A stretch of DNA of 51,684 nucleotides from Gammaproteobacteria bacterium (lineage in GTDB: Bacteria > Pseudomonadota > Gammaproteobacteria > Steroidobacterales > GCA-2729495), in assembly GCA_051008735.1 (NCBI GenBank), contig JBPCXH010000146.1, forward strand, positions 1 through 51,684. The letters run 5' to 3'. This document shows positions 1,648 through 45,800 of the stretch, in pieces; the first letter of the stretch is position 1, and every line of letters starts with the position of its first letter. The position numbers and the translations under genes were made by a program. Under the pieces are notes generated by a model. The model had not been told where the DNA came from, did no database searches, and was given only the letters and a program-made list of their open reading frames with translations.

Positions 1648-2316
1648 TTATGCAGCCAGGTGGGTTGCCAGAAAGGCCAGGCTGCGCTGTTCAGACGAGC
1701 GCGAGGCATCGGCATCGAAACCGTCGCGGTCTTCGCAATTGAAGCCATGCCCGGCGCCTTCATAGACGTATATGTCACCGCTTGGATCTGCCGACCGCAA
1801 TTGGTCTATTACCTCCGGCGGAATAAAGCCGTCATCGGCCCCGAAGTGATATTGCACGGGCACCTTGGGCTGCATTCGCTCCAGTAGCCGGCCAATTCCG
1901 CCACCGTAGTAAGACACGGCACACTTAAAAGGCTGCCCGGCGGCTGCCATGTAAGCGACGGTTCCGCCCCAGCAATAACCAATTATCCCGATGCCGCCGC
2001 TCCCCGCGACGACTTGTCGGGCCGCCTCCACATCAGCGAGCATTTGCAGCGGTGCAATGGACATAGCGGCTTCGCCGCCGCGTTTAAAATCCGCATAGTC
2101 GACGATCAGACCGGGTTCGACGCGATCAAAAAGCGCCGGCAGCACCACGTGATAACCGGCATCGGCATAGCGATCTGCACAACGTTGCATCTGTTCGGTC
2201 AGACCAAAAATTTCCTGGATCATGACCAGGCCACCTTTAGCCTCGCCCGAAGGCTTCGACTCATAGGCAGCAAGACGGTGACCATCTGCGGCTTCCAGCT
2301 CAATCCATGTACCCAT
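1648..2316 (-). CDS. Dienelactone hydrolase family protein (carboxymethylenebutenolidase-like)
   Basis: 222-aa ORF. It has the GYCWGG nucleophile motif (G-x-C-x-G) and the overall DLH pattern, including C-terminal GAGHGF. Confidence 0.85.
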   Translation of the reverse strand: MGTWIELEAADGHRLAAYESKPSGEAKGGLVMIQEIFGLTEQMQRCADRYADAGYHVVLPALFDRVEPGLIVDYADFKRGGEAAMSIAPLQMLADVEAARQVVAGSGGIGIIGYCWGGTVAYMAAAGQPFKCAVSYYGGGIGRLLERMQPKVPVQYHFGADDGFIPPEVIDQLRSADPSGDIYVYEGAGHGFNCEDRDGFDADASRSSEQRSLAFLATHLAA

Positions 2317-2366
2317 ATATCAAGCCTAGCGCAGCACGCCTTTGTCCGCGACACTGAATCTGGCAA

Positions 2367-3368
2367 TCATTCGGCCGCGCCCCGACCAGCAGACAGAGAG
2401 TCGCGGCCATGAGAAGTGGTGAAATCCACGTCCGGACCGGCGGGTACAACCCCGGTGGGGTTCACCGCCACCTGGCTGCGATAGTAGTGCGCCTTGATGT
2501 AATCGATGTCGACAGTTTTGGCTATGCCGGGCTGCTGATAAAGGTCACGGAGATAGCCCCAGAGATTTGGGTAGTCACGCAACTCTCGAATGTTGCACTT
2601 GAAGTGGGCAACATACACCGCGTCAAATCGCACCAAGGTAGTGAACAGCCGCCAATCCGCTTCGGTAATCTCGTCTCCCGTCAGATACCTTTTATTACCA
2701 AGGAGGACTTCCATTTTATCCAAGGCTGCAAAGAGATTGACGACGGCTTCATCGTAAGGCCCCTGCTCCGTGGCAAAGCCGGCCTTGTAAACTCCATTGT
2801 TGATCGTGGGATAAATAAATTCATTCAATGAATCAATTTCGGCTTGCAGCGGCACCGGGTAAAGATTCAGTGCCTTCGCGCCCAGTGAATCAAAGGCCGA
2901 ATTGAGCATACGGATAATGTCCGCGCTCTCGTTAGACACAATGGTCTGGCGCTGAATGTCCCATAACACCGGCACAGTAACCCGACCGGAGTAGTGAGCA
3001 TCGGCCCGGGTATAAATCTGGTGGAGTCGGCTGGCCCCGTTCACATCATCCGGCACCACCCCGGCACCCGGCTCAAAGGTCCATCCTTCGGGCCCCATAT
3101 AGGCATTCACGACGGAAAGAGAAATAAAATTCTGTAGTCCCTTAAGTTCTCGATAGATGATGGTTCGGTGCGCCCAGGGACAGGCCCACGACACATACAG
3201 ATGGTATCGACCGGCTTCGGCCTTAAAACCACCCTCGCCCGTTGGGCCCGGAGAACCATCCGCCGTGATCCAGTTGCGAAACTGCGATTCGGACCGCACA
3301 AACCGGCCACCCGTGGTGTCCGTGTCGTACCACTGGTCATGCCACTGACCGTCAACCAAGAGCCCCAT
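2367..3368 (-). CDS. yqjG: Xi-class glutathione transferase / glutathionyl-hydroquinone reductase
   Basis: 333-aa ORF. It is near-colinear with E. coli YqjG as I remember it (MG.L.DG.WHD.WYDT...GG.F.R..S.FRNW.TADG.PGPTG.GGF) and carries the CPWAHRT active-site motif. Confidence 0.9.
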   Translation of the reverse strand: MGLLVDGQWHDQWYDTDTTGGRFVRSESQFRNWITADGSPGPTGEGGFKAEAGRYHLYVSWACPWAHRTIIYRELKGLQNFISLSVVNAYMGPEGWTFEPGAGVVPDDVNGASRLHQIYTRADAHYSGRVTVPVLWDIQRQTIVSNESADIIRMLNSAFDSLGAKALNLYPVPLQAEIDSLNEFIYPTINNGVYKAGFATEQGPYDEAVVNLFAALDKMEVLLGNKRYLTGDEITEADWRLFTTLVRFDAVYVAHFKCNIRELRDYPNLWGYLRDLYQQPGIAKTVDIDYIKAHYYRSQVAVNPTGVVPAGPDVDFTTSHGRDSLSAGRGAAE

Positions 3369-3373
3369 GATCC

Positions 3374-4234
3374 TTATTCCTGAGTGGCTGCAGGTTCGTC
3401 AAGCAAACGCCCTGCTGCGTAATCGTCAAAAGCCTGATGAATTTCAGCCCGGGTATTCATGACAAAAGGTCCGCCCCGGGCGATAGGTTCATGCAATGCC
3501 CGGGCAGCTATCAGCAATACACGAGCCGTGTTGGCGCCAGCCATCAGCTGCACTGTGTCCCCGGCACCCAGAACAGCCAAATGCCTTGCTTTCAACGCAG
3601 TCTCGCCAGCGCGAAGGCTGCCAGACACGACATAGAGAATGACACTATGGCCCGCGGGCAGTGGTTCGGTAAAACTACCGCCCGGTGCCAGGGTGACATC
3701 GGCAAACAGCGGTTCTGTGACCACACCCTGCACGGGGCCAGCCAGACCCACGGAACTGGTGCCGGCAATGATCCGGGCTTCGCTGCCGTCTCGCCTGTCG
3801 ACGGGCATGTGCCGGCTATCAAATTCACGATAATCGGGTGGGCTCATTTTCAGCTCTGCAGGCAGATTGATCCAAAGCTGGACCCCCCGCAGCAGGCCGT
3901 CTTCCTGTTGCGGCATTTCTGAATGGATGATTCCGCGCGCGGCCGTCATCCACTGCACACCGCCCGTTTCTATGACGCCACTGTGCCCTGCACTGTCCTC
4001 GTGGGCCATTTTTCCAGCGAGCATATAAGTCACTGTCTCAAAGCCCCGATGCGGATGCAGAGGAAAGCCGGCAATGTAATCACCCGGTTGATCTGACTCG
4101 AACACATCAAATAGCAGGAAGGGATCCAGCCGGTTAATTTCCTTCGAGCCGATAATGCGGGTGAGCTTTACGCCGGCACCGTCAGTCGCAGGAGCACCCT
4201 CGAAAACCGACGCCACTGACCGAATAATCTCCAT
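3374..4234 (-). CDS. Pirin family protein (bicupin)
   Basis: 286-aa ORF with the PLHPHRGFETVTYML cupin metal-site motif. Its stop lies 5 nt from the yqjG start. Confidence 0.9.
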   Translation of the reverse strand: MEIIRSVASVFEGAPATDGAGVKLTRIIGSKEINRLDPFLLFDVFESDQPGDYIAGFPLHPHRGFETVTYMLAGKMAHEDSAGHSGVIETGGVQWMTAARGIIHSEMPQQEDGLLRGVQLWINLPAELKMSPPDYREFDSRHMPVDRRDGSEARIIAGTSSVGLAGPVQGVVTEPLFADVTLAPGGSFTEPLPAGHSVILYVVSGSLRAGETALKARHLAVLGAGDTVQLMAGANTARVLLIAARALHEPIARGGPFVMNTRAEIHQAFDDYAAGRLLDEPAATQE

Positions 4235-4777: not shown

Positions 4778-5857
4778 TCAGAGGCCGACCAGCTGGTTTG
4801 CCTCGGTCAGTGCCTTATCGATTGTCGGCCCATAGCCGTCAGCACCGACTTTACGCCAGATATCCTGTGCCTCATCGAATGCCGGACCGCCCACCAGGAT
4901 TTTCACATCGTGCTCGCAACGATCCCGCACCGCGGTGATGGTGTAGCTCACACGGGGCAGCTGCGTACTCAGCGCAGCCGTCAGCACAAGCAAATCGGCG
5001 TTAAAGAAAGTCAGCGTAGCAGGCAACTCCTGCATCGGAACATCAGCGCCAAGAAAAATAGTCCGCCAACCGGCAATTTGAAACACATCACTCACGGCCC
5101 GCAGACCGATGTCATGCACATTGCCGGTTGCAGCGGCCGCCACCATGGTTTTGCCGTTGGCAGCCGCCAGCGTTGCTGACTGCACCAGTACAGCCATGGC
5201 GCGCTGGGTTGCGAAAGTCACGAGGTGTTCCTCAGCAACATTCATATCACCCAGATGCCACAAGCGACCCACTTCCCGCTGGGCGGGCAAAAGAATCTGG
5301 GTATAAACGTCCATCGGGCTCATATCGCCCTTGCTGAGCTGCAGAACATCATCAATGGCCTGGGCAGCATTTCCTTCCAGCACCGATTGCAGATAAAGCA
5401 GAGCCAGGCGGTCATGGGGTCGCTCCGGATTGAGTTCCGAATCCTCTTCGTTCGGACGCGCCTGTGACAGGACATCGATCGCCTGATCAACATAGTCGAC
5501 AGCCTGCTGACTGGCAGCGGCCGGCAAGTTATCCGCCAGCACATCTTTCAATGCGCTCAGACTCACCACCAGATCATCTTCCTGCTGATTCCTGGCCAGA
5601 AATGCCTTGCGTGACCAGATGACCCGGGACGAGAACAACAGCGGCTCGCCCGTGCCCACTGCCGCAGCAAGCTCCAGGATTCGCTGAGTCATGTAAGTTT
5701 TCCAGGTCGCGAAAGCATCGGGCTGGAATCGCTGTTTAATGCCCGGTGATTTCTCGAACATCAGATTGGTTGCAAAACCGGCAAATCCGGACGCGCTTCG
5801 CTCCAGCAATTCAGCGGCAAACCGGTTGCCGTCGTTCTCTTTGTCGACGCTTTCCAT
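4778..5857 (-). CDS. Cobalamin (B12)-binding domain protein, CarH/AerR-like C-terminal module, no DNA-binding domain
   Basis: 359-aa ORF. The C-terminal half has VGRLWHLGDMNVAEEHLVT (the W-x9-EEH motif of the B12-binding_2 helical bundle). This is followed by GNVHDIGLRAV (x-H-x-x-G lower-ligand loop) and a Rossmann-like B12-binding domain. The N-terminal ~170 aa is helical and I do not recognise it. Confidence 0.8.
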   Translation of the reverse strand: MESVDKENDGNRFAAELLERSASGFAGFATNLMFEKSPGIKQRFQPDAFATWKTYMTQRILELAAAVGTGEPLLFSSRVIWSRKAFLARNQQEDDLVVSLSALKDVLADNLPAAASQQAVDYVDQAIDVLSQARPNEEDSELNPERPHDRLALLYLQSVLEGNAAQAIDDVLQLSKGDMSPMDVYTQILLPAQREVGRLWHLGDMNVAEEHLVTFATQRAMAVLVQSATLAAANGKTMVAAAATGNVHDIGLRAVSDVFQIAGWRTIFLGADVPMQELPATLTFFNADLLVLTAALSTQLPRVSYTITAVRDRCEHDVKILVGGPAFDEAQDIWRKVGADGYGPTIDKALTEANQLVGL

Positions 5858-20772: not shown

Positions 20773-22101
20773 ATGAGCGAGCAAACATTAAATACTTCCA
20801 TCCGCCGCTCTCTGGGCCTGCGCCTGGGCGGTGCCGCATTGCTTCTGTGCGCCGTCTTCGCTGCCATCGCGTGGATTAACGGCCAGGCGAGAATGGCCGA
20901 TGCCGTGACGGAGCTGGCCCGCCTGGAGGCGAACCGTCTTAATCGGTCAGCTCTGCCCTTGCTTGACGATCCGCAGAGCGGGCCAGCGGCCTGGCAAGCT
21001 GCCCTGGAACAACTGGCACGGGAGGGAGCAGGCACCGAAGTCGCGGGCGGACGCTTTGTTCTGGCCCGGGTTTTTTCTACCGACGGTAGCGCTCTGGCCG
21101 CACTTGAGAATAAAGATTTTCCGGGAATCGATGAGGTTCGCGAGGTGGTTGACGCCGGTCGCTTTCAACCGCCCACAGACGTTGACTACCGGGTCGTAAG
21201 TCGAGCTTTTGGAGATCAGCCCTACGTCGGGGTAGCTATCGCTTTGCGTGACTCCGAGAACAGCATCCGGGCATGGCTGGGAGGCGCATTTGCAGTGTCT
21301 CCGGCGGCGATGAAAAAGCTTCGCGCGGACGTATTGCGCAGCCTGCTGTACGTAATTGGGGGCGTGCTGCTAACTGCGCTGGCTATCTATCCGGTCGTCA
21401 GCAGCCTGGTCAGTCGGGTTGCCAGGGCCGGTACGGAGTTACTGACGGCAAACCTGGAGACCCTGCAGGTCCTGGGCAGTGCCATTGCCAAGCGGGACGG
21501 CGATACCGATGCCCACAACTACCGTGTGGCCGTCTATTCCGTGCGACTGGCCGAAGCCGCCGGTCTGCCGGAGCAAGACATGCCCGCACTGATTAAAGGC
21601 GCCCTGCTGCACGACGTTGGAAAACTCGGTATTCGTGATGATGTCCTGCTAAAGCCCGACAAGCTAAGCGAAGAAGAGTTTGCTGTCATGAAGACCCATG
21701 TCGAGCATGGACTTGACATCACAGGTCGTGCGCGCTGGCTGCATGACGCCATGACGGTGGTCGGCGGCCATCATGAAAAATTCGACGGCCAGGGTTACCC
21801 GGCTGGCCTGGAAGGATCCAGCATCCCGATCACTGCGCGAATATTTGCCATCGCGGATGTCTTCGATGCCTTGGGCTCGGAGCGACCTTACAAGGAGCCG
21901 CGATCACTTAAGGACACGTTAAGCACCATGAGTCGCGGTCGGGGCAGCCATTTCGACCCTGAACTGTTTGATTGCTTCACCGGCATAGCGGCCCAGCTAA
22001 AAGAACAATTCGGTAGCGGCGATGGTGAGAGCGCGCGCCGGGAGCTACAAAGACTGCTGGGTGTCTACTTCCGGCACGATCTGGATACCCTGACCAGCTG
22101 A
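20773..22101 (+). CDS. HD-GYP domain phosphodiesterase with two-TM periplasmic sensor region
   Basis: 442 aa. Two TM helices flank a ~170-aa loop. The HD motif is LLHDVGK, and HHEKFDGQGYP matches HHExxDGxGYP. Confidence 0.85.
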   Translation: MSEQTLNTSIRRSLGLRLGGAALLLCAVFAAIAWINGQARMADAVTELARLEANRLNRSALPLLDDPQSGPAAWQAALEQLAREGAGTEVAGGRFVLARVFSTDGSALAALENKDFPGIDEVREVVDAGRFQPPTDVDYRVVSRAFGDQPYVGVAIALRDSENSIRAWLGGAFAVSPAAMKKLRADVLRSLLYVIGGVLLTALAIYPVVSSLVSRVARAGTELLTANLETLQVLGSAIAKRDGDTDAHNYRVAVYSVRLAEAAGLPEQDMPALIKGALLHDVGKLGIRDDVLLKPDKLSEEEFAVMKTHVEHGLDITGRARWLHDAMTVVGGHHEKFDGQGYPAGLEGSSIPITARIFAIADVFDALGSERPYKEPRSLKDTLSTMSRGRGSHFDPELFDCFTGIAAQLKEQFGSGDGESARRELQRLLGVYFRHDLDTLTS

Positions 22102-36081: not shown

Positions 36082-36489
36082 ATGAACTCAACGACCCGGC
36101 TGTTCCTGGGACTGGCCTTCCTGTTGCTGGCCACCGGCACCACACTGGGCGCGACCGGCGCGCACTTTCTGCAGGAGCGCCTGACACCGGATCGCTTTGC
36201 GGTTTATCAACAGGCCGTGGACTTTCAGTTCTTCCAGGCCTTGGGCTTGATCGCCATTGCAGGACTTGCCCACCTGTTGCCGCAATCCAGGCTGGTCAAA
36301 AGTTGCGGCTGGCTCGTGGTGGCTGGCATTGGCCTGTTCTCCGGCAGCATCTACGCAACCACCTTTGGCTTGCTCCCACCGCGTATGGCATTTATCGCCA
36401 TGTTCGGTGGCTTTGCATTTCAGATCGCCTGGCTGACCCTGGCACTGACGGTCTGGTTCGGGACAAGCACGCGGGCGGCAGATCAATAG
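36082..36489 (+). CDS. DUF423 (YgdD-like) membrane protein
   Basis: 135 aa with 4 TM helices. GATGAHFL and LFSGSIY match the YgdD/DUF423 pattern. Confidence 0.8.
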   Translation: MNSTTRLFLGLAFLLLATGTTLGATGAHFLQERLTPDRFAVYQQAVDFQFFQALGLIAIAGLAHLLPQSRLVKSCGWLVVAGIGLFSGSIYATTFGLLPPRMAFIAMFGGFAFQIAWLTLALTVWFGTSTRAADQ

Positions 36490-36663
36490 TCATGATCAGA
36501 ACCACAGCCAAGCGGTCATTGCCCGTCCGATTCAAAGCCCCGACTTTTTGGCCGCTTGCGGGCTGAAGCCCGGGTATTTGCCCGAAAGCTTTTGCAGATC
36601 TTTGCTGATCGCGCGGTCGAAATTCATCGCCGGCCGGCAACTCGAATTCTGCTCCTTAGCTCG

Positions 36664-38724
36664 CTAAACCGACTGGCCGATTCCAGCTTTGGCTTTGGAG
36701 TCAGATGCCCCGACCTGTTCGCGCAGCAATTCAACCAGGGACTCCTGTCCCAGGCCTTCACGCTCTATCAGCCCGACAACACCGCCGTTCAAGCGACGAC
36801 GGTCGTCCTCTGTCACATCCTTGGCTGTCACCACTACGATAGGGACCTGGCGCGTCGTATCCTGCTGGCGCATTTCCAGTACAAAATCAAAGCCGTCCAT
36901 CACGGGCATCATCAGGTCCAGCAAAATCAGCGAAGGCAACTCGCTGGCGACTTCATCCAGGGCAACTTGACCGTTTTCGGCTTCGCTAACACGCCAACCT
37001 TCATTTTCCAGCACGCGCCGCAGCACTTCGCGATTCTCCGGCTTGTCATCAACCACCAGGGCGTGCCCGATATCACCACTCGCGTAACGGCCGAGTAAAC
37101 CAACCAGCTGATCGCGTCGCACAGGCTTGGTCAGAAATTCATTTGCACCCAGGGTGTAACCCAGGTTCCGATCGTTAGTCATGGTCACCATGATGACCGG
37201 TATGTCGCGCGTGGCGGCATCGGCTTTCAATTCACTCAGAACTTCCCAGCCATCCATTCCAGGCATCAGCACATCCAGAGTGATCGCAGCCGGCTTTAAC
37301 TCGCGCGCCAGGGCCAGCGCCTCCTGACCGTCAGTGGCAGTCACCACACGCAGCCCCGCACCCGTAACCGTGCGGTCCAACAGTTCCAGCGCTACCGGGT
37401 CGTCGTCAATCACCAGCACAACCGGACCCTCGCCAGGCTCTTTTACCGCTGCATTAGACGCGTCCGTGACTATCTCTTCTTCCGCCGCTTCAACCACCAT
37501 CACCGGTAGCTGAATCGTGAAGGTTGAGCCTTTTCCGGACTTACTGGAAACAATGATTTCACCGCCCATCATGCGGCAAAAACGTCGACTGATCGGCAGA
37601 CCAAGTCCGGTCCCCCCGTAATTTCGGGTCGTGCTGTCATCTGCCTGGGAAAATTCTTCAAACACGCGGTCAATTTTGTCCGGCGGGATACCGATCCCGG
37701 AATCCGACACGGACATTTCCACCCAGCTCTCGCCATCGATCTGTGTTGCCAGCACTTTCAGGCCTATCTCACCTTCGTGGGTGAATTTCGCCGCATTGCT
37801 GAGCAGATTAAACAGAGCCTGACGGACCTTGGTAACGTCGGCGTGCATTTCGCTGAGGGTGGGATCCACCTGTACGGAGAGCCGGTTGCCATTCTTTTTC
37901 ACTAATGTGTCAATCGTCGACACAACACCGTCAACGAGTTCCCCGACCCCGAAGGTCTCCAGGTACATCTCCATCTTGCCCGCTTCGATCTTTGACAAAT
38001 CGAGCACGTCATTGATCAGTGATAACAAGTGCATCCCGGCACTGTGAATTTTCTTCAGGTCGCCAACAGCCGACTCATTGCCGTCGTCTTCCGCCTCCTC
38101 CATCAACATTTCGCTGTAGCCGATAATTGCGTTCATCGGTGTCCTCAGCTCATGGCTCATATTGGCGAGAAAACCACTCTTGGCCCGATTGGCATCTTCC
38201 GCAGACTCCATCGCCTCCTTTAGCTCTTCGGTGCGCAGGGCAACCGTCTGCTCCAGCGCCGCACTGTGCTGCTCGAGTTCCCGGTTTTTCTGCTGAATCT
38301 CCGTCATCAGCTCTTCACGAGCGAGGGCCTGAATACGCTTGCGTTGCTCGGCAACGAAGGCATCATCTATTTGCAGGCGCGCAGTTGGCAGTCGCTTGGC
38401 CACGCGCACGCCCTGATAACCGTTTTCGGTCTTCTCAGCTGTGGAATCAAAGAATCCCCCCAGCCCGATGAGTTCGGGCATCCTGTCGCGAGCCTCAAAC
38501 ACGAGGATCACTTGCGGCGGAGATTGTTCGACCGACAGCCCCACGGCTATGCGCGGATCCTGGCACTGACCCTGTAGAGCTCGAGCCGCTTCACTCACAG
38601 CAATTGCCAGGCGGGTAACCTCAACACCGCTGTAGCCCAGCGAATGGGCCAGGCTGCGCATTTTGCTACGCGCATCATAGATCGCCGTCTGATGCCCCAG
38701 CCCGATGTAACCCAGCTCAATCAT
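36664..38724 (-). CDS. Hybrid sensor histidine kinase with two receiver domains and an unusual N-terminal domain
   Basis: 686 aa with the H-box [17 protein letters not shown] and HATPase motifs ([23 protein letters not shown]). REC1 has [12 protein letters not shown] and REC2 has [12 protein letters not shown]. No TM segment and no HPt domain. The first ~125 aa resemble a degenerate RsbW-type domain. Confidence 0.9.
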
Positions 38725-39320
38725 TCGCCGTACCGTATGGCAATGCAGGCGGAATCGTCATGACTTTTGCCGAATCGATCCAGTACCGCCCTTACCACCG
38801 ATTCCGGAGGGTGGCTGCGAACGCTGGGGTAATCCTCAGAGGAGAATCGATCGCTTACCCCATCGGTATAAAGCAGAATCAAATCGCCTGACTGAAGCTT
38901 CAAAGACTGGTGCAGCGGCGTGCGCATGTTCTGGCCAACGATGCCGTCCTTGGACACCAGGCGGGTTTCTGACTCGCCAAAACAGCGAATACTGGTATTG
39001 CCAATGCCAACGTAGTCAATCATGCCCTGCTCTGTGTTGACGGCACACAAACCCACGGCAGCACCCCGCGTACCCTGCAGATGCTTATGCAGACGCGGCA
39101 TGAGCGCAGCCACATCCAAGGTTGCGTGCCGCTCGAGGAATGTATCGATGACGTGCGTCAGCTCATGCGCTTCGGGGCCATGGCCCAGTACGTCAACTAT
39201 CGCAACGAACAGGCCATCATCCAGGGGCCGCACGACGACGGCGTCTCCGCTCACGGTTTCCCCCATGCAGGGCCTGAGCAGGCTGGCATGAGATAGTTTT
39301 CCGTTAGCCTTCATATCCAT
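38721..39320 (-). CDS. PP2C/SpoIIE-type serine phosphatase, RsbX-like (single domain)
   Basis: 199 aa with [11 protein letters not shown]...AIVDVLGHG...LYTDGVSD. It overlaps the HK start by 4 nt. Confidence 0.85.
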
Positions 39321-39709
39321 TTGCGAGCCGTGACCCGGGTGCCTTCACCGGGCGCGGATTCGAGCGTGAATTCATCCATCATGCGTTTGACGCCCGGTAA
39401 TCCCATTCCCAGAGTGCCGCCCGAGCTGAAATTGTCCTGCATAGCCTGCTCAGTATCGGGAATGCCAGGCCCGTGATCAGACACCTGCATTTCTATACCA
39501 TGGCCGCTGGGCCGCTTCACACGACGCAACAGAAAATCGCCTGAACCAGCGTATTTGAGAATATTGCGCCCGAGCTCGGAAACCGCGGTGGCAATCATTC
39601 GACTCGGCGCCTCATCAAAGCCAGCTTCTTGCGAATAGAGCGTTGACTCAAGAACAACTCGACGCAGATCCATTTCGCTGCGAATTTTTCGGCGTAATTC
39701 GGCGCTCAT
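39311..39709 (-). CDS. RsbT-like serine/threonine kinase (anti-sigma regulatory factor, GHKL fold)
   Basis: 132 aa with AVSELGRNILKYA (N-box), DHGPGI (G1) and GGTLGMGLPGVKR (G2). It overlaps neighbours by 10 and 4 nt. Confidence 0.85.
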   Translation of the reverse strand: MSAELRRKIRSEMDLRRVVLESTLYSQEAGFDEAPSRMIATAVSELGRNILKYAGSGDFLLRRVKRPSGHGIEMQVSDHGPGIPDTEQAMQDNFSSGGTLGMGLPGVKRMMDEFTLESAPGEGTRVTARKWI

Positions 39710-40203
39710 GAATCATCACCGAACAGCCGCTCAGAGCCAGAGACGTTTGCGTCGCCGGCATCGGGCATATCGCCCTGGCTCAGCTCACTCCTGGCTTCAG
39801 TCGGATCCTCATCATCAGCCTCCGCCTCAATATCCGGTGACACTTCTATCAATTCGAAGGCCGCGTCCAGATCGATAGCAGTCTGTAGCCCTGCCACATC
39901 GACATCCATTTCAATCAGTGCCGATACGACACCAGGCTGCAGACCCACCAACACGGACTGGCTACCCATGATCGTGATCATGGAAATAATGCCGCGCAAA
40001 GCCGCGAATTCATCAGAGTCCAGGGTATCGACACCCGACACATCCAGGATAACCGCACGCGAACCCGTCTGATGCACGCGACTGAGCAGGTCCTCCCGAA
40101 ATCGGCTGAGAACCTCATCATCCAGGTCGACCTGAATTGACGCCACGACGACGTCGCGGCTCACCTGCATGGCCACCCGGGGGATGTTGTCGTAAATAGA
40201 CAT
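39706..40203 (-). CDS. RsbS-like STAS domain protein with acidic C-terminal tail
   Basis: 165 aa. The STAS core has ILDVSGVDTLDSDEF, the conserved Ser context of RsbS. The last ~45 residues are strongly acidic. Confidence 0.85.
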   Translation of the reverse strand: MSIYDNIPRVAMQVSRDVVVASIQVDLDDEVLSRFREDLLSRVHQTGSRAVILDVSGVDTLDSDEFAALRGIISMITIMGSQSVLVGLQPGVVSALIEMDVDVAGLQTAIDLDAAFELIEVSPDIEAEADDEDPTEARSELSQGDMPDAGDANVSGSERLFGDDS

Positions 40204-40405
40204 TGCTGGCCAGATTCTACCGGAAACCGCCTCGGCGACTTAGCCGTTCCTGTAGAATTATGGCTAACCGACAAGCCACCCCCTGCTATGGCCCGGAGTC
40301 AGGCGACTGATTGCGCAAGACCCGACCGATCTGGCAGGCTGTCGTAACAAATACAATTACTTGGCTGTGCAGACGGTTGCTGGCCGGAACTTCAGGAAAC
40401 ACACC

Positions 40406-41554
40406 ATGAGCGCAAAAATAGCCCCAAAGAAAAAAATAGTCCCCGGTGACCTGGAGGCAATTTATCAGGCTATCGACCGGGTCCAGGCTGTCATTGAGTT
40501 CTCCCTGGACGGTACCGTCATTACCGCCAATGACAATTTCCTCAATACCTTCGGCTATTCATCTGACGAGATTGTTGGCCAGCATCACCGGATGTTTTGC
40601 GAACCAGACTATGCCGCCTCCTCCGAATACGCTAATTTTTGGAAAAAACTGGGCAGCGGCGAATTTCACACGGCCGAGTTCAAACGACTGGCAAAAAACA
40701 AACGGCCAATCTGGCTGCGGGCGTCCTATAACCCGGTATTTGATAAGACCGGCAAGGTCATCAGGGTCATTAAATTTGCCACCGACGTTTCAGCTGAGAA
40801 ATTAAAAACAGCTGAGTACGAAGGCAAAATGCAGGCCATAGATCGCGTTCAGGCAGTGATTGAATTTGAACTGGATGGCATTGTCATCACAGCCAATGAG
40901 AATTTCCTGCGCATCTTTGGCTATAAGCTTGACGATATCGTTGGCAAACACCATCGCATGTTCTGTGAACCAGGCTATTCCGAATCATCCGAGTACGCGC
41001 AGTTCTGGCAAAAACTGGGGCGGGGTGAATTCGAGTGCGGTGAATTCAAGCGAATCGATAAAGACGGCGGAGAAATCTGGCTGCAAGCGTCTTATAACCC
41101 GATTCTGGATGCAGACGGCAACCCGCTCAAAATCGTCAAATTTGCCTCGGATATCAGCCAGGAGGTAGAGAAACGCAGCCTGGCCCTGCTTGAGATGTCG
41201 ACACCCGTAACCAAAATCTGGGATGGCGTGCTGTTCGCCCCCATTGTGGGGATCGTGGATTCCAAACGTTCCGTCGACATCATGAACAAAGCACTTTCAA
41301 GTATCGCCGATACACGGGCACGTACCTTGTTGCTGGATATCGGCGGCGTTGCCATCGTGGATACCGCTGTCGCGAATCACTTGATCAAAATTGCCAAGGC
41401 TGCCGTGCTCATGGGCTGCAATACCATCATCTCCGGCATTTCGCCGGCCATCGCACAAACTATTGCAGAACTGGGCATCGACCTGGGTGCGATCCAAACG
41501 ACGTCTACCATCGAGTCCGCTCTGCGCGACTCAATCAGCCGACCAGGTGCTTGA
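40406..41554 (+). CDS. RsbR-like sensor: PAS-PAS-STAS protein
   Basis: The ATG at 40406 (MSAKIAPKKK) lies within ORF 40361..41554. Two near-duplicate PAS domains occupy 40466-40798 and 40832-41164. The C-terminal STAS (41192-41530) has LLLDIGGVAIVDTAVANHL. Confidence 0.85.
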   Translation: MSAKIAPKKKIVPGDLEAIYQAIDRVQAVIEFSLDGTVITANDNFLNTFGYSSDEIVGQHHRMFCEPDYAASSEYANFWKKLGSGEFHTAEFKRLAKNKRPIWLRASYNPVFDKTGKVIRVIKFATDVSAEKLKTAEYEGKMQAIDRVQAVIEFELDGIVITANENFLRIFGYKLDDIVGKHHRMFCEPGYSESSEYAQFWQKLGRGEFECGEFKRIDKDGGEIWLQASYNPILDADGNPLKIVKFASDISQEVEKRSLALLEMSTPVTKIWDGVLFAPIVGIVDSKRSVDIMNKALSSIADTRARTLLLDIGGVAIVDTAVANHLIKIAKAAVLMGCNTIISGISPAIAQTIAELGIDLGAIQTTSTIESALRDSISRPGA

Positions 41555-41593
41555 TTGCGAAGTAGCTGAGGGCTACGGGGGAAAGACGCGGCG

Positions 41594-41863
41594 TTAAGTG
41601 CGCACCGGCTTGCGTTCCAGGGTCACTCTAATAGTGCGCCCGCCCAGATTACTGCCGTCCAGCGCCGCCAGGGCAGCACCGTTACTGGCCTCATCCAGAC
41701 TGACGAATCCAACGCCGCGACATGAGCCGGTCATGATGTCTGTAGCAAGGCGCACGGATCGCACCGCGCCATGGGAAGCAAAATGAGCGCGCAAGCCCTG
41801 CACCGTCATCTGGGGTGACAGATTCCGAACCACCAGTTTGGTCGTAGGATGCGACTTGGTCAT
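41594..41863 (-). CDS. RNA-binding protein with a single RRM domain
   Basis: 89 aa with the RNP2-like KLVVRNL and RNP1-like RGVGFVSL motifs. Confidence 0.8.
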   Translation of the reverse strand: MTKSHPTTKLVVRNLSPQMTVQGLRAHFASHGAVRSVRLATDIMTGSCRGVGFVSLDEASNGAALAALDGSNLGGRTIRVTLERKPVRT

Positions 41864-41887
41864 GAACTCAGCAGCACATCAGAAAAC

Positions 41888-42085
41888 TTAGGTGGCCTGG
41901 GGATCAGTTTCATCAGGCGCGGTGGGCTCTGCGGTGGACGGCTCTTCCGTCGGTAAGAGTCCGTTGGCAGCCGCTTCTTTCATCGACTTCCTCAGAGCTT
42001 TCTTTTCCGCCTTGTCTTGGCGCTTTTCCAGTTTGGCGAATTCACGCTGTCGCTTCGCCTGAGTCTGTGGGCTTCGTCTTGCCAT
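41888..42085 (-). CDS. Small Lys/Arg-rich hypothetical protein with acidic Pro/Thr tail
   Basis: 65-aa ORF ending 24 nt upstream of the RRM gene on the same strand. Codon usage looks native. I recognise no family. Confidence 0.45.
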   Translation of the reverse strand: MARRSPQTQAKRQREFAKLEKRQDKAEKKALRKSMKEAAANGLLPTEEPSTAEPTAPDETDPQAT

Positions 42086-42366
42086 GGTGCCGTTATAACC
42101 TCAATCCAATACAGGGTCAGACCCTTAAAACCAAGGCCTGATAAACAAAGTATGCGGGATTTGCGCGTGAATAAGGGGATGGACCGGGCGATCGCCGGGC
42201 ACCCGCAAGTAAATTAGCGGTATCAGCCGGTGAAAAACCACCAGCCTGGCAGGCCAAAGGACCAATTGGGCCCGTCACCTACAGAATTTGCGCGGTTATC
42301 TGACCTCTTCTCCTTCATTCTCAGGGTCGGGCGCAGTCGGCCATCCTCCGTCAACCGGCCAGTCAA

Positions 42367-44364
42367 TCAGTCTTTCAACCGGGCTACAACAATGGTCTGA
42401 TCACCGGCATCACCTTTGGTGTAGATCTCCAGATCACGACGCAAACATTTAATCACGTCAACGGGGTGAGTCTCGCCCAACTGTTCCATAGTCCACGCCA
42501 CGCCCTTGCTACCGTATTGGCTACGCTCCACATTAAGCGCATCCAGCACACCGTCGGAAACCAGAACCACTAAATCGCCGGCCGCCAGCGTCAGTTCAAC
42601 CATTGAATCTGCAGCCACGTTCGCCTCCGTGCCGATGGGGCCAGCCAGGGCCGGGATTACCTGGACCTCAGCACCCCGGCGACACAGCAAGCCTTCCTGC
42701 CCCAGGCCCAGTGCCTGCAGGCGGCAAGCATCGCGATTGATCCTGATCAGCCAGCCTCGCACCGGTGCCGCTTCGGGTAGATCGGTGACAACAAACCGAT
42801 GCAGCTGAGCCGCAACGTCTGGGAGAGATGCCCCGTCGCCAAGGGCGGTCCGGAATGCCGCCCTCAGCTGGCTGCCCTGAACAGCGGCGCCGACGCCAAG
42901 GCCGGGTAAATCAAAATGCGCCAGGGCAATCCCGTCAGCCAGGGGCACAAGGTCATAAATCTCACCGCCGACATCGGCGGAAGGCTCGTACCAGGCCTGC
43001 ACCTCCAGCCCTGGATGCGAAGGCAGTTCAGTGGGCAGCGTCATGGCCCGGACGGATCGAGCAATGCGCAGATCTTCTCGCTCAGATAAAAACGACTGCA
43101 GAGCCTGGCGCATTCGCTCCAGCGTATTACCCAGGTAGCGGATTTCAGAGATGTCTGAATCCACGCGATCCATGGGCTCAAAATTCAGCCGCTGCATGCG
43201 ATTGCCGTGATCGATTAACTCCAGCAATGGGGTCGCATAGCGATTAGCCAGATAAAAAGCTCGCCAGACAGCAAGAATCAGGATGATGGCCGTAACGATC
43301 ATGACAATGAGATTGGTATCGGGCAGACCGGCCAGCAACTCCGACTCCGGCACCAGGGAACCCACCCACAGATCATCGGTGCTACGCAGCTTGGAACGGG
43401 CAATCGCGCCCCACCAGCGCTCGCCCTCATGCTCAAAGGGCTGGGCATCAGTCAGCGCCATGCCTGTTGCATTCAGGGCCTGCTCGGCAAAACTGGCCAT
43501 GGGGCCGCCCAGCGCACCGGGATGCAGCAACATAAACTCGGTCATTATTTCAGACGTTTCGAAACGCTGATCAGCGGGCAAGCCGACTACCATCAGCCCC
43601 TCCGGGTCAGACGGTTTACCGCGCAGCACAAAAACCTTACCTCGCTTGCCGACCTCCAGTTGCGAAGTGAATTTGCTGATATCGGCCAGGAGAATATCGA
43701 AACCCAAAATGGCCACGCCACCTGTCGCCACGCGCGTGGCCAGGCTGGCGGTGAGACCCGGCTGCTGGAGGGTGAAAAATTCATACGGGGCCGTCCAGTA
43801 AATACGCTCGCGAAACCCCGCCTCGTCACTCAGAGTATTCAATCGAGCCAGGGCACCGGCATGCCATGGCCGCGTTCTTGCATCGAAACCCAGGGCCTGT
43901 CTTTGCATGGGTTTTTCCGACGCGCCAGGCGCCCATTGCCGCACTTGTGCCCACTCACCCCAGCTATCAGGCCGGGACAGCCGACTGCGCCAGACCCCGT
44001 CGATCTTGATCAACCAGTAACCGTCCCCGGCCTCGGTGGCGTAACTCAAGGACGATAATTGCGGTATACGATCCACCAGGGGCTGGAAATAACGATCCAG
44101 GCCGTCGAGGGGAAACGACTCAAAGTCACCCTCCGCAATGCGGGCGGCGGCAACTTCAAGCGCCGTCTGGACAGGCTCGAAAAAACCCAGTAGCTGCGCG
44201 TCAGTTGTCGCGATTACTCGCTTGGTGAGGGAGCCGGACAGCACCTGAACCGCCCGGTCGGTGACCAGCAGAGATACGGCCAGCAGGCAAAGCCCCAGCA
44301 GCAGGACAATGCCGGTCAGGTTGAGCAGCAGATTGCTCTTGAATCGAACGGACTTCCGGGCCAT
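42367..44364 (-). CDS. Membrane sensor PP2C phosphatase (periplasmic Cache-like domain, HAMP-like linker, SpoIIE domain)
   Basis: The ATG at 44364 (MARKSVRFKSNLLLNLTGIVLLLGLCLLAV) is followed by TM1, a ~300-aa periplasmic region, TM2 (LIVMIVTAIILILAVW), a linker and a SpoIIE domain (VGGEIYD...LVSDGVLD). The 123-codon upstream extension in the ORF track overlaps the divergent lipase gene. Confidence 0.85.
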   Translation of the reverse strand: MARKSVRFKSNLLLNLTGIVLLLGLCLLAVSLLVTDRAVQVLSGSLTKRVIATTDAQLLGFFEPVQTALEVAAARIAEGDFESFPLDGLDRYFQPLVDRIPQLSSLSYATEAGDGYWLIKIDGVWRSRLSRPDSWGEWAQVRQWAPGASEKPMQRQALGFDARTRPWHAGALARLNTLSDEAGFRERIYWTAPYEFFTLQQPGLTASLATRVATGGVAILGFDILLADISKFTSQLEVGKRGKVFVLRGKPSDPEGLMVVGLPADQRFETSEIMTEFMLLHPGALGGPMASFAEQALNATGMALTDAQPFEHEGERWWGAIARSKLRSTDDLWVGSLVPESELLAGLPDTNLIVMIVTAIILILAVWRAFYLANRYATPLLELIDHGNRMQRLNFEPMDRVDSDISEIRYLGNTLERMRQALQSFLSEREDLRIARSVRAMTLPTELPSHPGLEVQAWYEPSADVGGEIYDLVPLADGIALAHFDLPGLGVGAAVQGSQLRAAFRTALGDGASLPDVAAQLHRFVVTDLPEAAPVRGWLIRINRDACRLQALGLGQEGLLCRRGAEVQVIPALAGPIGTEANVAADSMVELTLAAGDLVVLVSDGVLDALNVERSQYGSKGVAWTMEQLGETHPVDVIKCLRRDLEIYTKGDAGDQTIVVARLKD

Positions 44365-44441
44365 GAATTCTCGCCATCTGAAACACACCCCGACACCAGG
44401 CCGAGAGTCGCTAATATAGTCCAACGCCAAGGAGGTTTTAT

Positions 44442-45800
44442 ATGCGGCAGTGGCGACAACCCACGGCAGCCAGCAAAGGGGCGCAACCGGCATTGCGAAG
44501 CACCTCGCGCCTGCCTGTCCGGGACCCGAGCGCGCGCAACCCCGTGATTGTGATCCCGGGCGTACTGGGCTCAAAGCTGGTCGCTGAGGCAGATTCGCGC
44601 TCCGTGTGGGGCGAATGGCGTACCGGCTTCTCCGACCCGGCTTCCGGTGAGGGCGCCCAGCTGCTCGGCCTGCCAATCGAATACGGCACTCCCCTGGATG
44701 AACTCCGCGGTCAGAGTCGCGTCGACGGCGCACTGGATACAGTGCGTGGCTACATCGCCGGCATGCCAGTCAAAATCACGGCATACGGTGATGTCATGAG
44801 TGCCATGGGCGTAGAGAGCCATGCCGATACCGTCCAGCACGATCGGCAAAAAGCAAACACCTCAGAGGCGGCCGCGTTCGAATTCAGCTACGACTGGCGA
44901 CGCAGCCTGGATGAATGCGCGATGGACTTCGCCGACTTCGTCGCCAGAACTTCGCGCTTTCTGCAGATTCAGCGTCGCAGCAGTGAACCCATTCGATTCG
45001 ATGTAGTTGCACACTCCATGGGCGGTCTGGTCCTGCGTTACTTTCTGCAATACGGCCGGCAGTTGCTGCCGTATGACGACGCGATGCCACGACTCACGTG
45101 GGCCGGGGCGGCGCACATTGAAAAAGCCGTGATCGTCGGGACACCCAATGCCGGTTCGCTGACCATGATCGACAGGCTGGTCCGGGGCATTCCAAAAAAT
45201 GCTCTGCATCCCACCTACGGACCGGTTCTGCTGGGCACCTTTCCATCCGGGTACCAGCTTCTGCCTCGAAATCGACATCAGCCCGGAGCAAGCACATCGC
45301 TTCGACGTGAGGACGATGTCCTGGACCCGGACTTCTGGTTATCGCGAGACTGGGGCATCACGGCGTCATGGCTTAAAGAGGAACGCGCCCGTCAGTTCCC
45401 CGACATCGACAATCAAGCTGACCGCATAGAAGCGGCGGAAGATCATTTGCGCAAATGTCTGTTTAGCGCCCGTCGTTTTCAATCGGCCATGGACCAGCCG
45501 GCGCCCGGAGCCCCGGACCATCTCGAATACCACCTGTTCATGGGCGAGACCCAGAAAACGGCACGCTGCTTTACCGGCGCCCGGGGCGATCGCACAGTCA
45601 GCTGGACAGACTATGGCCCCGGAGACGGCACGGTGCTGACCAGTAGCGCCAGACTGACCGAAAGCGACGGGCGGTCACCCATTCCCTGGCGCAGCGTTAC
45701 CGCGTTGCGCAGTAATCATATGGGTCTGCTCAAAGACCCGGCGTTATTCTCGCGGGTATTACGCCTGCTCGGCGATAAAGCGGCGCCTGAGCCAATCTGA
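44442..45800 (+). CDS. LCAT/PGAP1-like alpha/beta hydrolase (lipase/acyltransferase)
   Basis: AAGGAGG lies upstream. It has IVIPGVLGSKL and the nucleophile elbow VAHSMGG. 452 aa. Confidence 0.75.
   Translation: MRQWRQPTAASKGAQPALRSTSRLPVRDPSARNPVIVIPGVLGSKLVAEADSRSVWGEWRTGFSDPASGEGAQLLGLPIEYGTPLDELRGQSRVDGALDTVRGYIAGMPVKITAYGDVMSAMGVESHADTVQHDRQKANTSEAAAFEFSYDWRRSLDECAMDFADFVARTSRFLQIQRRSSEPIRFDVVAHSMGGLVLRYFLQYGRQLLPYDDAMPRLTWAGAAHIEKAVIVGTPNAGSLTMIDRLVRGIPKNALHPTYGPVLLGTFPSGYQLLPRNRHQPGASTSLRREDDVLDPDFWLSRDWGITASWLKEERARQFPDIDNQADRIEAAEDHLRKCLFSARRFQSAMDQPAPGAPDHLEYHLFMGETQKTARCFTGARGDRTVSWTDYGPGDGTVLTSSARLTESDGRSPIPWRSVTALRSNHMGLLKDPALFSRVLRLLGDKAAPEPI

Follow-up and report, generated by a model that had tools for sequence, protein, structure and literature searches.

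The 51,684-nucleotide contig JBPCXH010000146.1 (assembly GCA_051008735.1), from a gammaproteobacterium of the Steroidobacterales and referred to here in its entirety as the window, carries a compact group of five genes between positions 36664 and 41554. We propose that this locus encodes a cytoplasmic stressosome-type module with a hybrid histidine kinase as its output, in which the RsbT-like kinase would act on the N-terminal domain of the histidine kinase; we put the probability of this reading at roughly 55%. The cassette offers a concrete and testable answer to how stressosomes outside the Firmicutes pass on their signal: a conserved pseudo-kinase domain that heads varied effectors encoded immediately after rsbX and that is wired, in the predicted structure of the window's kinase, to the catalytic histidine by one helix.

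Four of the genes lie in a row on the minus strand. In the direction of transcription, their open reading frames (ORFs) encode a single-domain STAS protein resembling RsbS (39706-40203, 165 aa), a GHKL kinase resembling RsbT (39311-39709, 132 aa), a PP2C phosphatase resembling RsbX (38721-39320, 199 aa) and a histidine kinase (HK) of 686 aa (36664-38724). The four are translationally coupled, with overlaps of 4, 10 and 4 nt (junctions ATGA, ATGGATATGA and ATGA), the middle one of which shrinks to 4 nt if RsbX begins at its second ATG. The fifth gene, which encodes a PAS-PAS-STAS protein resembling RsbR, is read divergently from the plus strand. Its frame is open from a TTG at 40361 to 41554 (397 aa), but the likely gene is 40406-41554: the ATG at 40406 (382 aa) is the more likely start because the Shine-Dalgarno sequence AGGAAA lies 8 nt upstream of it, and 382 aa agrees with the called size of the homologue in a related locus (L001, 384 aa). 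The two transcription units are thus separated by 202 bp (40204-40405). An earlier note on this DNA, made from the sequence alone, had described the coupled gene row, and its ORFs and junctions are as given there; likewise, the domains it had read from the five proteins (STAS, HATPase_c_2, SpoIIE, HisKA, Response_reg and PAS) were all found by Pfam. It had also called the 686-aa kinase soluble, in agreement with the lack of any hydrophobic segment resembling a membrane helix in any of the five cassette proteins. A membrane-bound kinase is rejected on the same ground.

Whilst the earlier note was right that the kinase carries two receiver (REC) domains, it overlooked the domain formed by residues 1-118 (38371-38724, minus strand), which is central to our reading. 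Residues 1-132 match no Pfam family even at E ≤ 10. RsbU_N (PF08673) is rejected for this position, as there is no Pfam hit and the model has an alpha/beta fold; as a positive control, the kinase of an actinomycete locus (L045) scores 3.5e-11 for RsbU_N. In an AlphaFold2 (AF2) model built from an alignment of nine sequences (predicted local distance difference test, pLDDT, 89.5; predicted template modelling score, pTM, 0.83), the domain consists of a beta strand, two helices and four further strands. The top matches in a Foldseek comparison with the PDB are all GHKL kinases of the anti-sigma type, namely RsbW (6m37 and 6m36; E 1e-5), SpoIIAB, UsfX and the RsbW domain of Rv1364c, with a probability of 1.0, E values of 1e-5 to 1e-3 and template modelling (TM) scores of 0.5-0.67 across the set. 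The second helix contains the string A40-x-A-V-S-E-x-x-R48, which is found at the same positions in the window's RsbT, and hhalign places residues 25-54 of the two proteins in register, weakly (probability 21%, E 1e-3); this alignment is suggestive, and we claim no sequence homology to RsbT from it alone.

The motifs of an active GHKL kinase are degenerate in this domain. Position 49, the N-box Asn of RsbT, is Ala here and is variable among 79 members of the domain family, Asn not being among its six commonest residues, and neither a DxGxG (G1) nor a GxG (G2) motif is present in the window's domain. With the N-box Asn not kept and the G1 and G2 boxes missing, we take the domain to be a catalytically dead member of the RsbT/RsbW fold. 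Other positions are near-invariant in the family: R19, K21, R38, S44, R48, F92 and D93. When 1.84 billion representative proteins were scanned with a profile (HMMER), 319 clusters passed E<1e-10 and 66 passed E<1e-30; of the 150 matches listed, nearly all begin at the N terminus of the protein. The 8508 matches at E<1e-3 are inflated and were left unused because the profile also spanned the coiled coil and the first HisKA residues; our counts come from the stricter thresholds and from matches beginning at residue 1. Word-indexed protein searches returned nine matches with the single sequence and six with a 54-sequence profile, mostly short fragments, and tblastn against plasmids returned zero. 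We found no description of such a pseudo-kinase, anti-sigma-like domain on stressosome outputs in Pfam (2025 copy) or in full-text searches of the literature within our searchable library, a negative that holds for these sources only.

The proteins that carry the domain, and the places in which their genes are found, point to its role. According to Pfam, 70 of the 79 family members contain HisKA/HATPase_c, 37 Response_reg, 14 Hpt, about 12 PAS, five GAF, four SpoIIE and two GGDEF, with EAL, Guanylate_cyc and HD occurring once each. HK-REC-REC is the arrangement that follows the N-terminal domain in the window's own clade. In loci with a co-linear rsbR-rsbS-rsbT-rsbX (R-S-T-X) order, the gene after rsbX joins the N-terminal domain to PP2C in a cyanobacterium (L030), to PP2C and an RsbW-like HATPase_c_2 domain in a member of the Gemmatimonadota (L027) and to HK-REC-REC-Hpt in Phenylobacterium (L041). 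A Halioglobus locus (L014) also has the HK-REC-REC-Hpt output, but retains the divergent PAS-PAS-STAS gene, and at a further locus (L055) a GGDEF-EAL effector is headed by the domain. The fusion in L027 has counterparts after rsbX in L032 and L035; all three proteins are of 569-585 aa and end in an RsbW-like HATPase_c_2 domain with its motifs kept, which places a phosphatase and a kinase of the anti-sigma type on a single chain after a stressosome module, the domains being confirmed by Pfam in L027 and assigned by sequence similarity in the other two.

Four family members were looked up by similarity of the N-terminal domain alone. All four directly follow an rsbX-like gene, with the full S-T-X block visible in three, beside which the RsbR is of the PAS, protoglobin or bare STAS type. 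In Niveibacterium terrae (CP172404.1) the order is PAS-STAS, STAS, RsbT, RsbX and a kinase with the architecture N-PAS-HK-REC-Hpt (N being the N-terminal domain), then REC-HD_5, a layout like that of D1 and D2 in Vibrio. One metagenome contig has a protoglobin-STAS protein as its RsbR; a further contig has two STAS proteins, RsbT, RsbX and an N-HK protein, again followed by REC-HD_5. The remaining member, an N-GGDEF-EAL protein, begins 4 nt after the C terminus of the RsbX-like protein. The genomic association of the domain with rsbS-rsbT-rsbX is strict in these loci. In the actinomycete locus L045, the only one of its kind tested, the position after rsbX is occupied by an RsbU_N-HisKA kinase. 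That the N-terminal domain stands where a known RsbT-binding domain can stand is our main argument that it receives the signal of the stressosome, and its occurrence directly after rsbX in all four look-ups, fused to diverse effectors, argues for an adaptor and not a sensor. Judged by gene position and domain content, then, the domain is probably a stressosome-receiving adaptor.

The remainder of the kinase appears fully equipped. Pfam identifies HisKA (residues 181-249, 2.5e-20) and HATPase_c (296-408, 6e-31), which form a kinase core at 37501-38184, and Response_reg in two stretches (1.7e-47) at 36664-37419, all on the minus strand. The catalytic residues His191, Asn310, Asp341 (G1) and Gly370 (G2) are all present and are invariant in ten orthologues. 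REC1 (residues 436-541) has Asp484 and Lys533, and REC2 (about 555-650) has Asp603; its position 655, which is Lys in six of the ten orthologues, is Arg here. Pfam finds no histidine phosphotransfer (HPt) domain in the 686 residues. Between the N-terminal domain and the core lies a helical linker (residues 119-180; 38185-38370, minus strand), the sequence of which is strongly conserved in our alignments. When residues 1-260 are modelled with AF2, a short helix (121-132) gives way to an unbroken helix of 79 residues (136-214), which contains His191 and precedes the second helix of the dimerisation and histidine phosphotransfer (DHp) domain. In this model, the N-terminal domain is tied to His191 by one continuous helix.

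A precedent exists for signalling of this kind. RsbT reportedly switches on RsbU by way of the latter's N-terminal domain and coiled-coil linker, making the coiled coil rigid, and the same mechanism has been proposed for RsbU_N-bearing kinases, which occur in rsbT operons (PMC12143880). For the window's locus, we infer the assembly of the complex, the signal, the partner of the N-terminal domain, the direction of regulation and all steps downstream of the kinase, as follows. The RsbR-like and RsbS-like proteins would assemble a STAS core that retains the RsbT-like serine kinase. On a signal perceived by the tandem PAS domains, RsbT would phosphorylate Ser63 of RsbS and Ser301 and Thr335 of RsbR and then depart from the core, which the RsbX-like PP2C would reset. 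Released RsbT would bind the pseudo-kinase domain of the histidine kinase, and its binding would alter the packing of the long helix leading into the His191 helix, so that autophosphorylation is switched. The phosphoryl group would then pass to Asp484 in REC1, to Asp603 in REC2 or to both, and from the receivers perhaps to an HPt protein or response regulator encoded elsewhere, unless the REC domains are themselves the end point. Sister proteins of 915-936 aa carry Hpt, which suggests that the relay may continue beyond REC-REC.

A number of points weigh against this proposal. To our knowledge, domains of the RsbW/SpoIIAB fold bind STAS proteins or sigma factors, not RsbT, so that the fold of the N-terminal domain argues at least equally for a partner in the STAS core. 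The structural match on which the fold assignment rests is moderate (the TM scores given above) and the sequence link to RsbT is weak. The rsbR gene is divergent and not the first gene of the operon, and the window links neither an HPt protein nor a response regulator to the cassette. Finally, a two-hybrid analysis detected no interaction between RsbT and the downstream kinase VvD1 in V. vulnificus (PMC9237108), although VvD1 is not established as a carrier of the N-terminal domain.

Several of these observations would fit a different arrangement, in which the N-terminal domain is a dead RsbT/RsbW paralogue that binds STAS proteins. The kinase would then dock directly on RsbS or RsbR, the Ser/Thr phosphates written by RsbT and erased by RsbX would decide whether it is held or released, and the effector itself would be the client of the stressosome. 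RsbW, SpoIIAB and UsfX, which share the fold, have all been solved in complex with STAS antagonists, and the helix common to the N-terminal domain and RsbT, in register in the two proteins, also speaks for it. A partner that is acidic or phosphorylated would match the near-invariant basic residues R19, K21, R38 and R48, RsbS in this clade bears a long acidic tail, and the negative two-hybrid result in Vibrio is also as this arrangement would have it. Set against this, L045 has at the same position RsbU_N, which binds RsbT and not STAS (PMC12143880) and so favours a receiver of RsbT; the accommodation of a dimeric kinase beside RsbT on a crowded icosahedral core raises steric questions; and two loci with the N-terminal domain (L041 and L044) have an RsbS without the acidic tail. 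We consider docking on the STAS core unlikely on balance, at about one chance in four the best placed of the alternatives to an RsbT-binding domain.

It is considerably less probable that RsbT phosphorylates the kinase transiently at a Ser or Thr residue, such as one in the N-terminal domain or the linker, without binding it stably. Such a mechanism was proposed by Heinz et al. for downstream kinases lacking RsbU_N, VvD1 of V. vulnificus among them (PMC9237108), and the RsbT homologue of Moorella is stated to phosphorylate a downstream diguanylate cyclase (Jia et al., PMC4976288). A possible acceptor is Ser44, near-invariant across the family of the N-terminal domain, but the same residue is equally invariant in RsbT itself, where it lies inside the common helix, and its conservation is therefore explained by ancestry and structure. 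Moreover, an entire conserved domain exceeds the needs of a phosphorylation site, and the title of a study listed as reference b34 in PMC4976288 states that the kinase activity of B. subtilis RsbT is not needed for activation of RsbU.

The other four proteins resemble those of stressosomes. The small STAS protein, in which Pfam finds STAS, matches RsbS structures from B. subtilis (6jhk, 6e-20), Listeria (6qcm, 2e-19) and V. vulnificus (7o0i, 1e-18) in the PDB, and SpoIIAA at only about 1e-3. Its Ser63 occupies the position of B. subtilis S59 and Listeria S56, aligning with the acceptor Ser of the ...IDS motif; the Listeria S56A entry 9o4r has Ala there. Residues 119-165 (39709-39849, minus strand) form an acidic tail of 47 aa, with 16 D/E and 2 K/R, that is probably disordered. 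Acidic tails of 33-53 aa are present in all close relatives, often with EPEPEP-like repeats, their composition kept and their sequence not; classical RsbS proteins and those of some distant loci have no such tail.

The divergent protein has PAS_3/PAS_9 twice and STAS in Pfam, with PAS domains at about 40484-40801 and 40871-41155 and the STAS domain, after a linker helix, at about 41132-41536, all on the plus strand. The best PDB match of its C-terminal 135 residues is V. vulnificus RsbR (7o0i_B, 2e-40), linker helix included, and the STAS half matches Listeria RsbR at 2e-23. Both acceptor positions are kept (397-aa numbering): Ser301 (GIVDSKRS) aligns with T175 of Listeria RsbR, where Vibrio also has Ser, and Thr335 (IVDTAVANH) aligns with T209. 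Variants in the PDB with A or E at T175 mark this site in Listeria. The nearest solved relatives of the PAS domains are those of MmoS (FAD-binding; 3ewk, 2e-14), DosP (haem-binding; 6e-10) and Aer (FAD-binding; 5e-9).

Pfam finds HATPase_c_2 and HATPase_c in the 132-aa kinase, the ATP-binding motifs of which are intact (N-box Asn49, G1 D78-x-G-x-G82, G2 G101-x-G103) and invariant in the RsbT alignment. It scores 48 bits against the spIIAB equivalog model TIGR01925, the cut-off of which is 135. Public data contain over 1500 relatives of it at E ≤ 1e-5, the best 120 being 72-81% identical and many carrying the JGI name RsbT. It is also 47% identical to the kinases of the actinomycete loci, among them that of L045, where the output has RsbU_N. 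The failure to reach the spIIAB cut-off, the intact motifs, the length (an RsbT has about 133 aa), the overlap with rsbS, the JGI names and this kinship together mark it, indirectly, as an RsbT. The 199-aa phosphatase has SpoIIE (1e-14) and no extra domain in Pfam; in the PDB it matches MtX, the stressosome phosphatase of Moorella (3zt9, 7e-20), and RsbX of B. subtilis (3w40, 4e-11).

From these comparisons of sequence, we accept the assignment of the four proteins to the RsbR, RsbS, RsbT and RsbX types. The earlier note had named all four, reading an RsbS-like STAS protein with a DS phospho-site, an RsbT-like GHKL kinase, a single-domain RsbX-like PP2C and an RsbR-like PAS-PAS-STAS protein, and each of these identities is borne out. 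It had also allowed that the proteins might profile as SpoIIAA and SpoIIAB; they do not, the match to SpoIIAA being weak and the spIIAB score below its cut-off. A sigma switch of the SpoIIAA/SpoIIAB or RsbV/RsbW type is rejected for the same reasons, and there is no sigma factor gene among the Pfam-scanned ORFs of the 51.7-kb window.

The arrangement of the cassette is not a peculiarity of this contig. We assembled 51 loci from context look-ups and a scan of one genome per species and analysed them by tblastn with the window's proteins. The gene order is repeated in about 25 independent loci and is not due to chance, and at least 18 genome loci share the same layout of a divergent PAS-PAS-STAS gene followed by RsbS-RsbT-RsbX-kinase. 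These come from metagenome-assembled genomes (MAGs) labelled as Gammaproteobacteria (including Halioglobus, Pseudomonadales and Candidatus Azotimanducaceae), Myxococcota, Planctomycetota, Deltaproteobacteria and Candidatus Sulfomarinibacter; two more of the same class, from a Chromatiales (L017) and a Burkholderiales (L020) MAG, are cut off upstream of rsbR. Wherever a locus of this similarity class is long enough, all five genes are present, and thus the lack of co-occurrence that the earlier note had named as a possible refutation was not found. A co-linear rsbR-rsbS-rsbT order is met in more distant relatives and not here, where rsbR is adjacent and divergent. Conservation with different flanks extends to Acidobacteriota MAGs, and since the flanks differ from locus to locus, the five genes behave as a unit of their own. 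The closest relative, from an uncultured gammaproteobacterium (L008), has an RsbT 91% identical to that of the window and shares neighbouring genes. Across phyla, identity to the window's proteins is 87-99% for the STAS domain of RsbR, 61-91% for RsbT and 42-61% for the N-terminal domain of the kinase.

Individual loci show some further features. The planctomycete locus (L010) has a second HK-REC-REC gene upstream of the cassette (1985-3517 of that locus), the kinase core of which shares 62% identity with the window's; another REC-like stretch follows at 5081-5404. Apparent frameshifts in L013 (REC region of the kinase) and L026 (rsbS-rsbT junction) most likely stem from errors in assembly.

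The least probable of the alternatives, that the locus is an ordinary small partner switch without a megadalton stressosome or that the kinase is merely co-transcribed and senses through its own N-terminal domain, draws on the position of rsbR outside the operon and on the capacity that such a domain could in principle have for independent sensing, but is very hard to reconcile with STAS proteins much closer to solved stressosome subunits than to the SpoIIAA type, with a conserved RsbR linker helix, with an RsbR STAS domain conserved across phyla to the degree expected of a tightly packed assembly, and with an N-terminal domain placed directly after an rsbX-like gene on several types of effector.

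The divergent region offers a hint as to how the operon is expressed. On the minus strand at 40204-40230, there is a -10-like element, GGTAGAATC, conserved as GGTTTCCGGTAGAATC, which ends about 10 nt before the ATG of rsbS; its counterpart in an alignment with six related loci (including L008, L001, L004, L009 and L010) is TATAAT or TACAAT. No Shine-Dalgarno sequence is visible ahead of rsbS. With the -10-like element so close to the start codon, the rsbS mRNA looks to be leaderless or nearly so. A generic scan of 36400-42400 for sigma-70 promoters and terminators gave no excess over chance, with zero hits in the divergent intergenic region.

Elsewhere in the window there is little to connect with the cassette. 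The earlier note had stated that the window holds no RsbU, RsbV or RsbW, sigma factor, HPt protein or output regulator. A search with phmmer of all stop-to-stop ORFs of at least 50 aa found no other REC, HPt, STAS or RsbT-like ORF, and Pfam scans of the remaining 34 large ORFs revealed neither a sigma factor nor another signalling partner, so that this much of the statement stands; what it missed is a SpoIIE/PP2C ORF at 42367-44733 on the minus strand. The encoded protein is a sensor phosphatase: its C-terminal domain is SpoIIE/PP2C, and it also has a HAMP-like stretch and two hydrophobic segments, at about aa 131-157 and 476-495. It has no RsbU_N, no STAS or anti-sigma partner gene is found near it, and it is joined to the cassette only in L008. 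Its start is probably near aa 115 (MARKSVRF), since the stretch ahead of it overlaps a divergent LCAT-like gene and is frame-shifted in L008. The rsbR-like gene is directly followed, on the other strand (41594-41863, minus), by a gene for an 89-aa RNA-binding protein with a single RRM_1 domain, which is 94% identical in L008 and absent from the other cassette loci. Finally, a 442-aa protein encoded at 20773-22101 on the plus strand has a C-terminal HD_5 domain (HD-GYP type) after some 230 residues with no Pfam match. It has no REC and is encoded 15 kb from the cassette; elsewhere, the regulator after the stressosome-linked kinase is REC-HD_5, and a link between this protein and the cassette is only a thought.

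If RsbT does act on the kinase in the manner proposed, a partner switch based on serine phosphorylation would feed a His-Asp phosphorelay, at the junction of two main bacterial signalling systems. We suggest more tentatively, and regard as somewhat less likely than the proposal for this locus, that the N-terminal domain is an unrecognised and widespread adaptor: a dead copy of the RsbT/RsbW fold by which the STAS core, or RsbT, is connected directly to histidine kinases, PP2C phosphatases and c-di-GMP enzymes, and hence a missing coupler for many Gram-negative loci without RsbU_N, possibly including those of the V. vulnificus type. The value of the cassette lies in this hypothesis for how stressosomes without RsbU_N reach their effectors and in the system it provides for testing it: being compact, fully cytoplasmic and very conserved, it is convenient for reconstitution and structural work.

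Modules of this general kind have been recognised before. The prediction of RsbR/RsbS/RsbT modules with outputs of the two-component or c-di-GMP type dates from 2005 (Pane-Farre et al., as cited in PMC10014275), and Heinz et al. described eleven downstream architectures after globin-RsbR RSTX modules, HisKA/REC phosphorelays included, most of the downstream proteins being without RsbU_N (PMC9237108). The wiring seen here is, as the earlier note had it, uncharacterised; an RSTX module followed by a HisKA/REC phosphorelay, on the other hand, has already been catalogued (PMC9237108; PMC10014275). What distinguishes this cassette from others of a known kind is its divergent tandem-PAS RsbR, its acid-tailed RsbS, its compact kinase ending in REC-REC without HPt and the pseudo-kinase N-terminal domain.

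The RsbR-like protein resembles YtvA, the LOV-STAS paralogue of RsbR in B. subtilis, in its PAS-linker-STAS order (NCBIfam YtvA_fam, 6e-32; PDB 2mwg, 1e-17), but it has two PAS domains and scores 111 bits against NF052652, the cut-off of which is 250. NCRFLQ is the flavin-binding cysteine motif of LOV domains; in its place, the two PAS domains of the window's protein read GQHHRMFCEP and GKHHRMFCEP. A LOV photoreceptor is rejected on the YtvA_fam score. The N-terminal domain of the kinase, for its part, has the fold of RsbW, SpoIIAB and UsfX and shares the helix motif A-V-S-E-x-x-R with them, but lacks the N-box Asn, the G1 and G2 boxes and the ATP lid, is cut to about 115 aa and is fused to effectors instead of being free-standing, with no sigma factor gene nearby.

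Compared with the RsbR-RsbS-RsbT stressosome of B. subtilis and Listeria, the cassette has a homologous STAS core, RsbT and RsbX, with the acceptor residues conserved, and its output protein follows the same plan, with a dimeric effector joined by a helical linker to a partner-binding domain at the N terminus. The output is, however, a histidine kinase and not a PP2C acting on RsbV-RsbW-sigma B, its N-terminal domain is an alpha/beta pseudo-GHKL domain and not the four-helix RsbU_N, rsbX directly follows rsbT, and RsbS has an acidic tail. The RsbU_N-headed kinases and the MtR/S/T/X-MtG module of Moorella thermoacetica, with its diguanylate cyclase, are similar in that an N-terminal domain and a coiled-coil linker connect RSTX with a non-sigma effector (PMC12143880; Heinz 2022; Quin 2012 as cited there). 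Those effectors carry Pfam RsbU_N, to which the N-terminal domain in the window is unrelated in fold.

The V. vulnificus system (VvRsbR-S-T-X, VvD1, VvD2; PMC9237108, PMC10014275), which has been studied in vivo with a VvD1 knock-out included (PMC10014275), also has S-T-X followed by a cytoplasmic hybrid kinase without RsbU_N, and no sigma factor. VvRsbR is the protein most similar to the STAS domain of the window's RsbR and shares Ser at the first acceptor position, but it is a haem globin sensor encoded co-linearly, whereas the window's is a tandem-PAS protein encoded divergently. VvD1, of about 1060 aa, is followed by VvD2, a c-di-GMP-related regulator, whilst the window's kinase is of 686 aa, ends in REC-REC with no HPt and has no linked regulator. 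In Niveibacterium terrae, an architecture like that of Vibrio does carry the N-terminal domain.

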